The notes below the pieces were generated by a model, which was not told the DNA's origin, searched no databases, and saw nothing but the letters and a program-made list of their open reading frames with translations. DNA of 62,415 nucleotides, counting the filler, from Rhabdomonas costata (taxonomy: Eukaryota): the NCBI GenBank assembly GCA_019059605.1. It is 30 parts of 30 records of this genome, joined end to end, with 100 filler letters (N's around TTAATTAATTAA, not from the genome) between each part and the next. Parts side by side here need not be neighbours in the genome. Positions count along the whole stretch, not along the records: positions 1 to 1,985 come from JAHMHO010006719.1; 29 more parts are not named here. One strand, given 5' to 3'. Below, piece by piece: positions 1 to 14,820 of this stretch (position 1 is its first letter; each line of letters begins with the position of its first letter). The position numbers were made by a program, and so were the translations under genes.

Positions 1-411
1 GTTGGGGGGGTGAGGCAAATCAAAGGACAAAATTGTCCTCATCGAAAGAAATACGCATTTGGAAGCGCTCGGAACAACGAACGGCAACGTATGGTAACGA
101 AACCGAGTTCTGGGAAAATTTGCTGCAGTCTTGACTTCAGAATTGATGCTTCGTTGACTGACTGATGAGAATACGGTACCAACCCACAGAGCATGTTATA
201 TACAAAGGCAGTGTACAGTGGCAAAAACCACTGGCGGAGTACTGGTAACTTACGTCCACTAGTAAAGTGGGAGTCAGAAGTAAAAAGTACTGCGAGGGGC
301 TGTGTGTATGTGAATGAAAGTGAGAATGTTGCGGAAGGGAATTACCCAGACAACCAGCACTCAGACGAACAATAAAAGGGGTGGAAAGAGAGGGATAAAG
401 GTGTCATTCAC

Positions 412-1985
412 CTTTCGAGAGTCTGGACCTGGGGGATGAGCTTCTGCACCACTTTCGAGAATGCTGAAAAGACAGCAATTCCCCATAGACAAGATGTACA
501 AAATGCGAAGTTTCGAAGGCAGTGCCATACAAAGGTTGGAGTATAATCCAGTTGAGTCCAGAACATTCCTTCAAAAACGCTGTGGTCGTAGATGGACGTG
601 AGGTGGAAAGCCAAGTGGGGCACCGAAGGGATGTGCCCAGAGAACCCTGAGGAAGGCCCCGCGGTTCCAGGCGCGGGGAGCGGTTTCTGCAGACCAAGAT
701 CCTCGTTAACCTGTTGTTGTGGTAAGGAAGGGGAGACTGAACACGCAGAAACCGCAAACCACAGTAACTGTCCCATTCTCAAAAACCCCTGGAGGTTGTT
801 CTGTGGTTGTGAATGTGGTCGCTGCATGTCCAATTTTGTTTGGATATGTGATGGGTCAGAACAGTTCTGCTACAGAGTGGGAAAAAAACTTGAGGTGGAA
901 GTCTCAAAGATTGCAGAAGAGGGAGAATACTCAATATTTTTACGCACTCGCTATCTCGGTTTGTACACTGTTCTTCTAATTCAAAAACAACTATTTTGAA
1001 TTGTGCCATTTGCAATGATCGTCCGTTTCAAGCCAGAAAATGAAGAAAATGGAGGAGATTTTCTCAAAGAGGACTAAGCCGATGCAGGCCCGGGGCCTTC
1101 AGGCCGATACCCGTGCCCCTTGGCTCTTTCCTTTATTTTTTTCTTTGCAGTGTCTTGCATCTTGTGCCTTGTGTCTTTCCCCAGTGCAGCGGTAGGTTTG
1201 AGGACAACACCAACAAAGTATGTACAAAAACCCACCTGCCTCTGTCCCCGCGAAAGGGGACCCAGGCAAATGGCTCTCGGCCGCTTGTTACCCACCAAAA
1301 TTACACAGTGGCCGGGATCAGGTCCACACCTGGAGCTCGTTCGGAGGAGGAGGAGGAGGAGGAGGAGAACATGAAGCAAGAGAACGGAAAGGACGAGAAC
1401 TTCACGCAGACCCTCTGCTGTAAGTTGCGGTGCAGCTCGTTTTTGTGGTCGTCCGAGAGCCCATCGATTTTATGGATAAAGACCTCAATGTTGAGGTGTG
1501 GGTTGATCTCCCAAGCCTTTGCAGCAGTCTTCACCAACGTGTCTTCTGCTTCCAAAGTGTCATCCTGACGAAAGAGAAAACCCAGCTGAAGAAGACGAAG
1601 TGTTCCCACAGCAAATCAGGCGATGGGAAGGGACGACCATCCCAAGTAAATCTACACTCTCAATGCAACCTGGAGCCCGCTATGTCAACAGGCTCTGGTA
1701 ACTCTATTCGAGGTCACCCAGATCAAAAGGCAAGGGAGGACGAGGTTTCGGAACCAGGCGCCACCCCATTCTCCTTGAAGTGTGTTCGAAGACAGGCGAC
1801 GTCGTCACGCAGAACGACGAAGACGAAAAAGGCGAATTGGGCGCACGAAGACTTCCTTGCCAGTTAACATGTGCAGCGTCAAAAGCACCCCAAGAAATTA
1901 GGCTGCTGGGCAAAAGGTAAAAGGAAAACCCACAGACCTGGGAATCAACCACGAAGATTAACGAGCCGCACTGTGCCACAACCAC
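412..1985 (-). CDS. RRAGC: Rag C/D (Gtr2-like) GTPase, partial; exons 1985-1938, 1564-1412, 710-569, 463-412
   Basis: Spliced peptide GSLIFVVDSQ|DDTLEA...NIEVFIHKIDGLSDDHK...QR|VNEDL...LAFHLTSIYDHSVFE|AFSKVVQKLIPQVQTLE matches the RagC/D motifs EVFIHKxDGLSDD and TSIYDHSxFEAFSKVVQKLIP. Exon phases are consistent. Confidence 0.93.
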
Positions 1986-2085
1986 NNNNNNNNNNNNNNN
2001 NNNNNNNNNNNNNNNNNNNNNNNNNNNNNTTAATTAATTAANNNNNNNNNNNNNNNNNNNNNNNNNNNNNNNNNNNNNNNNNNNN
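1986..2085. other. Artificial contig spacer (N44-TTAATTAATTAA-N44); first of 29 such spacers, one every ~2.08 kb
   Basis: The same 100-nt N-padded linker with stops in all frames recurs throughout. Flanking sequences are unrelated, so no synteny can be inferred across spacers. Confidence 0.98.
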
Positions 2086-2370
2086 TTGGTGTGTGTGGGT
2101 TCGCCTTTCAGTCGGCACACACATTTTTGCGGGCGGTGTTTTGCGCAGGGTTGGATGGTTGAGGCCCCATGCGGCTGCCAAGACATGGTCCATCTTGGAC
2201 CCTTGTGGCCATGTGCTTGCCCGTGTGGGAAAACAAGCCGCTGTGTGTATGAAGCGGACAGGCAGCAGGAGAGTCTTCGAAAGCCCGCTGGAGGCAGGAA
2301 ACACCTCCGCCAAACGGGTGTCTTGCGCACGTTGTGAGTGATCCGGAGAAAACGTTACATTAACATTTTA

Positions 2371-2430
2371 GGAAAGGAAAGGAAAGGAAAGGAAAGGAAA
2401 GGAAAGGAAAGGAAAGGAAAGGAAAGGAAA
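2371..2430 (+). repeat. (GGAAA)12 microsatellite
   Basis: Perfect pentanucleotide tandem array read directly. Confidence 0.97.
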
Positions 2431-10904: not shown

Positions 10905-12297
10905 CTAGATGATCTCGTCGTCGTCGTCCTGCAGGGGGACGGCAGCGGCAGCAGCACTTTCTGCCTCCAGCTGCTGCTTCCTTGCCTCATCGATGTGCAC
11001 CTCACTGGGCTGCAGGGCGGGTGCCTCCACAAAGGTGAGGTTGTTGTCATTGGCCAGTTTCTTTGCAAGCCCTGAGCGACAAGGCAAAACATGTGCTTTC
11101 AAAACGACGGGCTCCCTCCGCGTTGAGACACGAAGAACCCGGGAGGAAGGACAAAAACTATGCCAGAATGTCGCACACAAGAGTCACGTTTTGTCTGCGG
11201 CGACACAAACACACACAGGACACAGGACACACTGGACCCTCACTGTTGTTGTTGTTGCCACCCATTTCTGTGTGTGTGTGTGGGGGGGGACGGTAAGTGA
11301 CCATCCAAAAGCAAAAGCACACGATGCAGCGGTGCACCGCTCACCCAATTTTTAAAAGAGATTTTGAAGCGTGCAGCGGAGCTTCGGTACGTTTTTGTTC
11401 AGGAAGGGCTGCTGTCGGCTGTTGTCAGGCGCGAACCGTGCCGGCCACGCCCCCCTTCCTCACGTACAAGATCACAATTTGAAGTTGGAGATTTAAGGTC
11501 TCGAAACATGGCGCCAGCGATACGTGGCGTCATAACCTGTCTGCATGTTTGAAATGTTTGACAGTCCCGGGACACCTAGGAACCACGTATGAAACCAAGG
11601 AAATCTCGCTCACAACGACACGCAAAGTGTGGTTGTGTGCAGTTGCACTGAACACTTACAAAGAAAAGGCTTCTCAAAGTTGTAGTTCGACTTTGCGGAG
11701 ACGTCATAGTACTGCAGGTTCTTCTTCCTGTGGAATGTGATCTGCTTGGCCTTCACCGCGCGCTCCATAACGTCCACCTTGTTGCCCACCAAGACAATAG
11801 GGATGTTTTCGCACACCCTGACAATGTCACGGTGCCAGTTGGGGACGTTTTTGTAGGTTTGCCTCGAGGTGACGTCAAACATGATGATAGCGCAGTTTCC
11901 CTGAATGCTGTGAAAAAAGGAGCAAAAATGAAAGAAGAAAGCTGAATGCGAGGATTTCTTTCACCACCGCCACTACCAAACAAAATACGAAAACACCTGT
12001 CATGCCTCACAGCTGAAATCCTAGCAACGATGCATTTTTTTGGGTTGAAAGTAAAGGAAAGATGTCATACTAGTAGCCGTCTCTGAGACCTCCAAACTTC
12101 TCCTGGCCCGCAGTATCCCACACATTGAAACAGATTTTACCCCTGTTCGTGTGGAACGTCAGCGGGTGGACCTCAACACCGATGGTTGCAATGTACTTTT
12201 TCTCAAATTCTCCTGTGAGATGCCGCTTGACAAACGTGGTCTTCCCAGTACCACCGTCGCCGACCAAAATCAGCTTGAAAGTTGCCACAACTTGATC
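10905..12297 (-). CDS. RAN: Ran GTPase; exons 12297-12071, 11907-11660, 11071-10905 (start exon outside contig)
   Basis: [48 protein letters not shown] and an acidic tail (DDDDEII*). Two GT-AG introns restore the YY and W codons exactly. Confidence 0.98.
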
Positions 12298-14820
12298 CTG
12301 GAGTGAGAAACACGCAGCCCTTCAGGAAAAAACCGAAAATACCCGCCTGCTTCAAAAGGACGTTTCTCTCGTTTTTTTTGAAGCGCTTCAGCCTTCCCAC
12401 CCCCCAACNNNNNNNNNNNNNNNNNNNNNNNNNNNNNNNNNNNNNNNNNNNNTTAATTAATTAANNNNNNNNNNNNNNNNNNNNNNNNNNNNNNNNNNNN
12501 NNNNNNNNGAGCTACCTGAGTACCTGACGCGTAAAAGCTGGGGTTTTTTGTGTGCGCTGAGAGATTCGCACCTTCCCCGTGTTTTTTTTGCTGGTATGGT
12601 ACTCTCTTTGTTACCTTTCTCCGCTGCTCGGTGACGCCGCAAAGTTCTTCCCAGGCAAATTCCTTCTTATTAAATATTCGATTTCGATGTTAGGTTTTAG
12701 AAGAAACGCACGATATTGTGCCACAGGCACAGGAGTTTGGCAATGATGTCGAGATTTTAGGTTCTGCAGTCATTTGCTCAAGGGTTTCAGACCCTGTTAG
12801 GTTCTGCGCCGCAGTGTTGTTCTCAGGGGTTTCAAACCGTGTCTCCTCGAATCAGTGATGCTGGATTCTCACCGGATGACGCCAATGAATATGCGCTGTC
12901 ATTCTGAAACTGTGGGCGCTACTTTGAAGTGCCTTTGCTCTCACCGCTCTTTCTCTCCATGTTGATTTTGAGGGTCCTTTCTTCAGCACCCAGTCTTTTC
13001 ACAACTGACCTCCGGACCTCCACCAAGCTTCAAGGGGGTCTTTCTATTGTTGAGGGTGCACTCGAGTTTCCACCCCGAGACATAAAGCTCCAGGATTTAC
13101 CGTAGTCTCTTGTCTTGAGGTCTCTTTTGTTGGGATTCTGGCCGTAGTATCGCAATTGACCACTTTTCCACGGTTGTCTTTACCTCAATGCCAAGCTGTG
13201 AGCCCTTTCAAGGTTGAAACCGCGGGTTTTCGACTTTGTTTGGTGGTGTGGTCCTTTGGGGGGAAGCTTACCGTATAACTGCGTTTTTTAGTCTAATTTT
13301 GCCCTTTAAACAGCCTTATTGACCACCTGGACCGCCCTGGCTGGATATTCCACCGTAACCGCGTTCCCTTGGTCCGCTCGTCTCGAGCTGTGGTGGGATT
13401 CTCGCGGGATGACCTTCAATGGCCTATGATACCAATGAACGCACTACCGACTGATGCGAGTTCCTCGTTTTTCGGAGTTTTTTTTCTACGTGGAGCACTT
13501 TTGAGGACCTTTCTGCCTGTGGTTAGCCTCTCGACTTTAATTGTGCCTTTTCGGAAGAAGGGTGATTACTAGCCCTGCTTTGATGCTCGATGATGGTCTC
13601 ACTGATAGTAGTATGACTCCTTTGTTTTGCTTTTTGCTGGTTGTTTCTTTTTCCCTTTTTGACGGCTGGACGGCTTTTGACGTTGTGCTTTGTTCTACTT
13701 CACCCGCCCTCCCCCGGCCGCACACACACACACACACACACACACACCAAAACCAAAGAAAAGAAAAGAAAAGAAAAAGAGAGAACCTCGCGGGAAGCCA
13801 CCGCCACCGCGAGCGACCCAAGGTGGGAGTCAAGGCGGCGCAGCCGCGGCAACACGGCCCGCTGCAAGAAAGACAAAAAACCACAACTGCACCGTACACT
13901 TGATAATCAGCCCTGCCGCCTCTCGGGGCTGAGGGATGTGGCAGCAGCGAGGAAGGTGGGAGGGGTATTTATCCCAGGGGCCCTCCACAAGGTCAGCGAC
14001 GACCAGAAAGAAGGGGATCAAGCACTGAGCATCCAGGGAGAACAGAGACGCAGAGCAGGAGAGGTCGACGGCAGGAAAGAGACCCTCGACACTCCCAGGG
14101 GCGAGACATGAAAGCCGCAGCCGAAAGCAGGTGGAAGACGAGCACGTGTGCTCCAGGAGTGCGATGCTGGCACGGGATATCACAAGTTCCAACGGTGTCC
14201 CTTTGTGCACCCGACGGAGGAGCACCTAGAACAGACCCGCGCAGAGACGGACCCAGTGCGCAGAAAGCGGAGCATCGCAAGAAATCAAAGCCCTTATGCT
14301 AGGGCCAACGGGAAGCCAAAGTATTCGCAGACGCACCAGGGCAAAGAGTCAGTGAGGCAGCCTTGAGGTACCGGAGGCTCAGCGGAAGAGGTCAGGAATA
14401 GCCGAACCGCAAAGACAGAGCGAGGTGCTGGCATGGCGACGCCTGCAGATACTGGTGCTGCCCGTTCAACCACCCCCCCCAAACCCTCCCAACACANNNN
14501 NNNNNNNNNNNNNNNNNNNNNNNNNNNNNNNNNNNNNNNNTTAATTAATTAANNNNNNNNNNNNNNNNNNNNNNNNNNNNNNNNNNNNNNNNNNNNCTGG
14601 GTGTGTTTGGGGGTTTGTGGCCCCGCGTACACCATCGGTCGTACGTCCCGAGGGGGATACCAACCCTGTGAGGAAGAGTAACGTGAGGCAGCGAGGCGTA
14701 AAGGAGAGAGAAGGGAGTGAGGCCCGATGGGTCCATGCCCCATCGAGGGTGGGGAGCGGGAAAAAGAAACGCCAGTCTTTCCAGGCCAAGTGTGCAACGT
14801 ATGTGTGTGCGTGTTGGTAG

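Follow-up and report, generated by a model that had tools for sequence, protein, structure and literature searches.

A putative U2-type GA-AG intron in the RagC/D gene of an apparent euglenid

A 105-nt intron with GA-AG borders interrupts a RagC/D gene on the minus strand of the window (the whole stretch of DNA analysed, 62,415 nucleotides with filler, built of about 30 contigs of about 1985 bases separated by linkers of the form N44-TTAATTAATTAA-N44), and it is precisely missing from an assembled transcript of the same gene. We consider it very likely that this is an ordinary, putatively U2-type intron in which the mismatch at donor position +2 is compensated by strong pairing of the flanking positions, in what appears from sequence comparison to be a euglenid. 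Introns of this kind are already known; what is added here is transcript support, a match to the host's own U1 snRNA and a measured background of other donors. The features of the gene, in window positions, are given below; a slash marks a splice junction, and X1 to X4 denote four sequence runs that match the contig, all from one sample and one study.

1938..1979, minus strand: RagC/D exon, CGSLIFVVDSQ region (piece 1937-1979 of X4 record 24, past which it has 48 loose letters; further upstream exons lie off the contig)
1565..1937, minus strand: GT-AG intron of 373 nt, CAG/GTCTGT...TCAG (X4 joint skips 373, CT..AC)
1412..1564, minus strand: RagC/D exon, DDTLEA...HKIDGLSDD...LQQR (Pfam PF04670, E 4e-8; X4 piece)
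711..1411, minus strand: GT-AG intron of 701 nt, AGG/GTCTGC...ACAG (X4 joint skips 701, CT..AC; contains a repeated element)
569..710, minus strand: RagC/D exon ending ...HLTSIYDHSVFE plus the first base of an Ala codon (homology; X4 piece 569-708, 0 differences)
561..571, minus strand: GA donor AAG/GAATGTTC (U1 pairing at -2, -1, +1 and +3 to +7; mismatch at +2)
464..568, minus strand: GA-AG intron of 105 nt, phase 1 (sequence; X4 skip)
464..480, minus strand: acceptor with a pyrimidine tract, ...TGCTGTCTTTTCAG/; 8 of 10 letters at -14..-5 are pyrimidines (sequence)
412..463, minus strand: RagC/D exon AFSKVVQKLIPQVQTLE (homology; X4)
1..411, minus strand: start of the next intron, AAG/GTGAAT (in the loose end of X4 before 412 the frame goes on as LLDMFISNS; the intron end lies off the contig)

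The intron reads GAATGT...TTTTCAG from 568 to 464, lies in phase 1 and has its sole AG at the terminus. The original prediction had described an interval of 105 nt with a single AG, a length divisible by three and no in-frame stop, all of which was confirmed on the minus strand; its statement that retention would add 35 residues also holds, since keeping the interval inserts 35 stop-free codons. With the interval removed, the reading frame runs ...HLTSIYDHSVFE/AFSKVVQKLIPQVQTLE. Exon sequence on either side aligns with human RagC (residues 212-228 and 225-244) and matches Pfam Gtr1_RagA, and the exon at 1412..1564 matches PF04670 with an E value of 4e-8. The gene's identity as RagC/D (Gtr2) is further indicated by the presence of the Gtr1_RagA domain and by its PDB matches, all 13 of which are RagC, RagD or Gtr2. 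The contig (G000:C6719) is identical to window 1-1985, and window 300-800 has no other match in the assembly. Alternative junctions were rejected: the GT at intron position 5 yields a 101-nt intron that is out of frame, as had been predicted; other in-frame GT/GC-AG pairs (donors 600-541, acceptors 500-441) lose conserved residues; and the in-frame GC-AG (580-464) and GT-AG (578-444) cuts lose them too and conflict with the X4 contig.

Metagenome RagC loci were gathered by a pattern scan for an upstream RagC motif, and the counts that follow refer to the 119 matches listed. Continuity across the intron position passed the filter in 108 of these 119, four more read through with a different residue, and a GA intron at this position was found in none of those listed. 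GT directly follows the same Glu codon in seven of the 119 listed loci (L210, L230, L256, L258, L293, L308 and L310), in phase 0 and one base upstream of the GA-AG intron position; in two of the seven a GT-AG intron is completed (342 and 436 nt). These sites are either a near-intron pair or an independent gain. Protein searches with pieces of RagC, which are short and weak queries, returned no matches, hence no euglenid RagC ortholog for comparison. Compared with homolog L256, the exon at 569-710 (minus strand) has an additional stretch of about 18 residues, rich in Pro, Gly and Ser, ahead of HLAFHLTS; these are present in the spliced X4 contig and are therefore coding.

Removal of the intron is documented by X4 record 24, a 571-nt transcript-type contig (depth 6.8) that matches the window in four pieces. 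It joins 463 to 569 with exactly 105 nt left out, and it lacks the two GT-AG introns upstream as well, of 701 and 373 nt; this contig shows no retention. The predicted interruption of RagC/D by an intron with A at +2 in the assembly is thereby upheld. Because AG precedes both ends, the cut can slide by 2 nt, and GA..AG, GG..CA or AG..TC would yield an identical mRNA. Precise removal from the transcript, G at +1 and a YAG acceptor behind a pyrimidine tract (8/10) are all as found in U2-type introns. A spliced form of the RagC/D mRNA exists, and the contigs are compatible with a rarer retained form as well. Within the 701-nt upstream intron, a repeated element at about window 1207-1340 reaches a summed contig depth of 57-189 in three runs and has many loose ends, and at window positions 1073 and 1083 all three DNA-type runs differ in letter from the assembly.

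The assembly (97.2 Mb in 104,289 contigs) is mixed: one rRNA primer pattern retrieved three rRNA loci, comprising two differing eukaryotic 18S ends and one bacterial 16S. The divergent 18S end (L006) presumably is euglenid; the second, conventional one (L007, 101-648, minus strand) is, we assume, flowering-plant-like; and the bacterial 16S (L008, 1-448, plus strand) is accompanied by a tRNA. The second eukaryotic 18S and the bacterial 16S mean that the assembly contains foreign DNA. The window also has a Ran gene, on a different contig of this assembly from RagC; the Ran protein P0176, which matches its exons at 96-100% each, is placed in Euglenozoa at 100/99 and is 88.9% identical to Eutreptiella versus 79.5% to Diplonema, the branching within Euglenozoa being left unsettled by the tree. 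The host is thus, as judged from these sequences, apparently a euglenid. A dinoflagellate origin is rejected on the Ran tree, and in a euglenid the relevant rival is nonconventional or intermediate splicing, which the original prediction, with its dinoflagellate analogy, had not considered. The Ran gene itself (window 10908-12303, minus strand) has two GT-AG introns, with donors TA/GTATGA and T/GTAAGT, and a (TTTCC)n microsatellite occupies window 2370-2430, on the contig next to that of RagC/D.

Three identical U1 copies with different flanks were recovered among 42 scored of 2289 candidates; the 5′ end reads (U)AACAUACCUG and the RNA begins ACAUACCUG. In the host U1 an A replaces the Rfam-consensus U opposite donor +4, while opposite +2 the A is kept. 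Pairing of the donor AAG/GAATGTTC with this U1 takes in -2, -1, +1, +3, +4, +5, +6 and +7 (8 of 11 positions, the +7 pair being conditional on the predicted U1 start position), and within -2..+7 only +2 is mismatched. The duplex is worth -7.0 kcal/mol with the host's own U1 and -3.0 with the canonical end, against a GT-donor median of -5.7. The earlier list of matches to canonical U1 (-2, -1, +1, +3, +5 and +6, with A at +2) proved correct. Inspection of U1 and U6, suggested at the same time, uncovered a U1 variant opposite +4; of the 2289 U1 candidates 42 were scored, and among these a compensating change opposite +2 was not found. U6 has the canonical form of the ACAGAGA box. The branch-pairing region of U2 is that of the consensus. 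The 105-nt intron holds no match to a YTRAY/CTRAY-type branch point, a consensus not derived from this genome, and it has adenosines at -41, -34, -32, -23, -17 and -16. One U1 (L002 1501-1667, plus strand) and a U2 (2068-2259, minus strand) lie tail to tail and 400 bases apart on G000:C443. The U12-type donor consensus is RTATCCTT; this donor reads GAATGTTC and does not match it. In Euglena gracilis the donor consensus GTGTG is described as pairing fully with U1, with one wobble (PMC11170887), which implies the same CAUAC stretch; the U1 variant is therefore probably general among euglenids rather than new.

A background of other donors was obtained from dynein heavy chains. Family searches of the assembly gave 175 loci, reduced to 150 without contained ones (193,738 bases), and these were aligned with 125 of 150 reference dyneins (at least 800 residues), every in-frame donor/acceptor pair near a junction being scored. 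The resulting 141 rows fell to 120 when 21 overlapping duplicates were removed, and 102 introns passed both thresholds, three or more references and a score of 100 or more. Junctions were called by homology alone; where scores lay within 5 units of each other, GT was preferred to GC and GC to GA. The initial calls were 94 GT-AG, 6 GC-AG and 2 nominal GA-AG; one of the latter (L163) was re-called by hand to GT, being 0.3 units outside the GT threshold with its GA option in a CGC/ context. The final count for the 102 strong introns was 95 GT-AG, 6 GC-AG (95% CI 2-12%), 1 GA-AG (95% CI 0.02-5.3%) and 0 GG. The remaining GA-AG intron (L099 258-784, minus strand, on G000:C24360; 527 nt, CAG/GAACC...CCCACAG/) is the second supported by homology: its GT option scores 18 units worse, and its donor reaches 5/9 pairs, less than that of RagC. 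Set aside were 18 weak rows, with 13 GT-AG, 4 unresolved and 1 nominal GA (L078) that was judged not credible. One further dynein locus (L131, on G000:C2437) has the donor GTATCCTT, which we take to be the U12-type consensus; it is covered by 2 references only and shows no obvious U12 branch site, and may be a chance match.

Tolerance at +2, which the original prediction had ascribed to this lineage, is therefore real but modest. A base other than T stands there in 7 of 102 introns, and all seven of these donors follow an exonic AG, compared with 57 of 95 GT donors (Fisher p=0.044). The genome-wide donor census that had been proposed was carried out here as these 102 homology-called dynein introns, where GA is present and rare: its donors make up a small class, about 1%, a figure resting on 1 of 102, beside GC at about 6%. 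Among the 95 GT donors, -1 is G in 91, -2 is A in 60 and +5 is G in 50; +4 is T in 43 and A in 16, this A being expected from the variant U1. They trade exonic against intronic pairing, in that the 57 that follow AG average 1.4 of 4 matches at +3..+6 and the other 38 average 2.8 (p=1e-7). None of the 95 combines an exonic AG with RTGT, and the RagC GA donor has both. Outside +1/+2 this donor makes 7/9 pairs, as many as 2 of the 95 GT donors attain; at +3..+8 it makes 5/6, which none of the 95 does.

This background bears on whether the A at +2 (base 567) is genuine, since the direct evidence on that base is thin and the donor context was tested for that reason. Base 567 reads A, as in the assembly, in X1 record 1 (447-778, depth 2.7x), the sole DNA contig across it, which departs from the assembly in two further intronic letters, at 523 and 719; X1 may be the source of the assembly, X2 and X3 do not reach the base, and a spliced X4 contig cannot display +2. 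It is conceivable that the true donor is GT and that the A arose by amplification or sequencing error or as a rare allele, the transcript having come from a GT template. Depth is low (2-5x), and many contig ends in the assembly consist of G and T only, a feature associated with random-primer amplification. The runs differ from the assembly at 15 places in 1985 bases, three of them T to A; by our own arithmetic this sets an approximate upper limit of 0.2% per A/T base, alleles and repeats included. In a published table of euglenid intron borders, six other one-letter-off classes have word counts of 82-139 against 185 for GA-AG, each about half as common (PMC8219788). A random copying error, however, would be expected to strike an average donor, and the absence of any GT donor with both exonic AG and RTGT (0/95) argues against a T-to-A error, as do the rarity of 7/9 pairing, the A seen in X1 and the absence, from all 102 census introns, of any junction needing a change at +1, -2 or -1, where the commoner transition errors would have appeared. 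We therefore regard error as an unlikely explanation, and hold with high confidence that the GA donor is real, even though its strong match may have drawn the eye in the first place, which weakens the context argument somewhat.

Since the host appears to be a euglenid, the same mRNA could also arise if a nonconventional or intermediate intron were removed independently of the spliceosome, its register being slid to AG..TC or GG..CA. The 2-nt slide allows this, and the AG..TC register would have a purine start, a pyrimidine end and a next exon beginning AGC, three weak traits of such introns as described in PMC4770533. Nonconventional introns are reported to need pairing of their ends (PMC4770533), yet here the end pairing was equalled by 457, 359 and 285 of 500 shuffles, the fold z-score is -0.79 and the donor and acceptor ends are not paired with each other in the fold. 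The signature 5′-N3CDG...CHG-N5-6/R fits neither end of the intron in any of the three registers, a failure that is not final because the signature is found in 61% of nonconventional introns (PMC12501133). An intermediate intron would share the AG border, which is present, but its end-joining structure is absent from the predicted fold. Together with the strong U1 complementarity and the normal pyrimidine tract, which favour the spliceosome, this makes removal by such a route very unlikely. It is less likely still that the donor is a weak regulatory one by which some mRNA keeps the 105 nt, giving a RagC lengthened by 35 residues within the helix that follows TSIYDHS. The interval is a stop-free multiple of three and is short for the genome (3 of 102 census introns are of 105 nt or less), but its length and frame are unremarkable, as 32 of the 102 census introns have a length divisible by three and a stop-free run of 35 codons occurs by chance about 19% of the time. 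The sole X4 contig here is spliced, with zero depth at 470-536, although contigs drop rare forms, and a homolog with such an insert was not seen among the 119 metagenome loci listed.

Recognition of the GA-AG intron by the ordinary spliceosome would proceed as follows. U1 may bind across the A:A mismatch at +2, aided by the exonic AG and by +3..+7; the site could then be held in register by U5 loop 1, at the end of the exon, and by U6, with its ACAGAGA box on +4..+6 (UGU). G+1 serves branching and the step-2 contact with the last intron G, and with G+1 retained, branching and the G+1/G-1 step-2 contact would be expected to go ahead normally. Such a scheme would require no special snRNA, and none was found. 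Compensation predicts a donor that is strong on both sides, as is seen.

No new machinery is revealed by this intron. It offers a transcript-supported +2 mismatch in a donor fitted to its own variant U1, set against a measured GT background that is never strong on both sides. Gene finders restricted to GT/GC donors would miss or mis-model about one intron in 100 in this genome, and it would be wrong to class euglenid GA-AG borders automatically as nonconventional. A possible, if rather doubtful, extension is that GA-AG introns form a distinct class (about 1%) read by the spliceosome in euglenids, +2 being free once the exonic AG and an intron side matched to ACAUAC are satisfied, and that such introns could be a landing state of nonconventional introns that have lost their end pairing, en route to GT-AG. 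If that were true, conversion between the two euglenid intron types, which has long been debated, could be tested at this RagC position across euglenids.

GA-AG introns are already on record for animals, plants and dinoflagellates, for the fibrillarin gene of Euglena and in one euglenid supplementary table. As in core dinoflagellates, G at +1 is kept here and +2 varies (PMC7789003); GC and GA donors together reach 25-74% in three of seven columns of a headerless table row for those organisms, which belong to another lineage, versus about 7% here. In plants GA donors are rare but functional (PMC10668435). The RagC donor resembles the single GA donors of Trema SYMRK (PMC10668435) and FGFR1-3 (cited in PMC5714493), each efficiently spliced by normal machinery there; GA makes up at most 0.01% of donors in plants and vertebrates (PMC10668435, PMC5714493), and our census suggests a frequency that exceeds this by one to two orders, within a wide margin of error.

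Among euglenids, the pooled border words of Tables S2, S3 and S5 for the osmotroph Rhabdomonas costata give GT-AG 9461, GC-AG 634 and GA-AG 185 (PMC8219788). If rows are doubled, the 185 GAAG/CTTC counts correspond to about 90 of 11,418 introns (about 0.8%), with a noise floor of about half, and GC at about 5.6% matches our census, although that table may not be independent of this assembly. Its rows are automatic predictions, and section 7 of that paper neither names a GA-AG class nor tests U1 pairing. The term 'GA-AG' has no match in the main text of PMC11170887 or PMC12621601, and a paper treating it as a euglenid spliceosomal class was not found in the literature searched, mostly without subscription journals. 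The structured, intermediate GA-AG intron in the gene for fibrillarin of E. gracilis (Russell et al. 2005, cited in PMC3935182) likewise comes from a euglenid and has AG/GA...AG/ borders; there, however, a fold joins the ends and U1 pairing is weak (PMC3935182), whereas the RagC intron has no end pairing and strong U1 pairing. Another close likeness is to the U2-type introns of Eurytemora affinis and Oikopleura dioica, in which GA donors are common in an AG/GA-A context (PMC5714493, PMC7072748). In those accounts, as here, GA follows an exonic AG, A stands at +3, the acceptor is ordinary, removal is required for a full-length protein and U1 has no clear compensating change. The two cases differ in that GA reaches 3-12% in Eurytemora and Oikopleura, exceeding GC, with GG present (PMC5714493, PMC7072748), as against GA at about 1%, GC at about 6% and GG in 0 of 102 here, and in that the present host has a U1 with A, not U, opposite +4.
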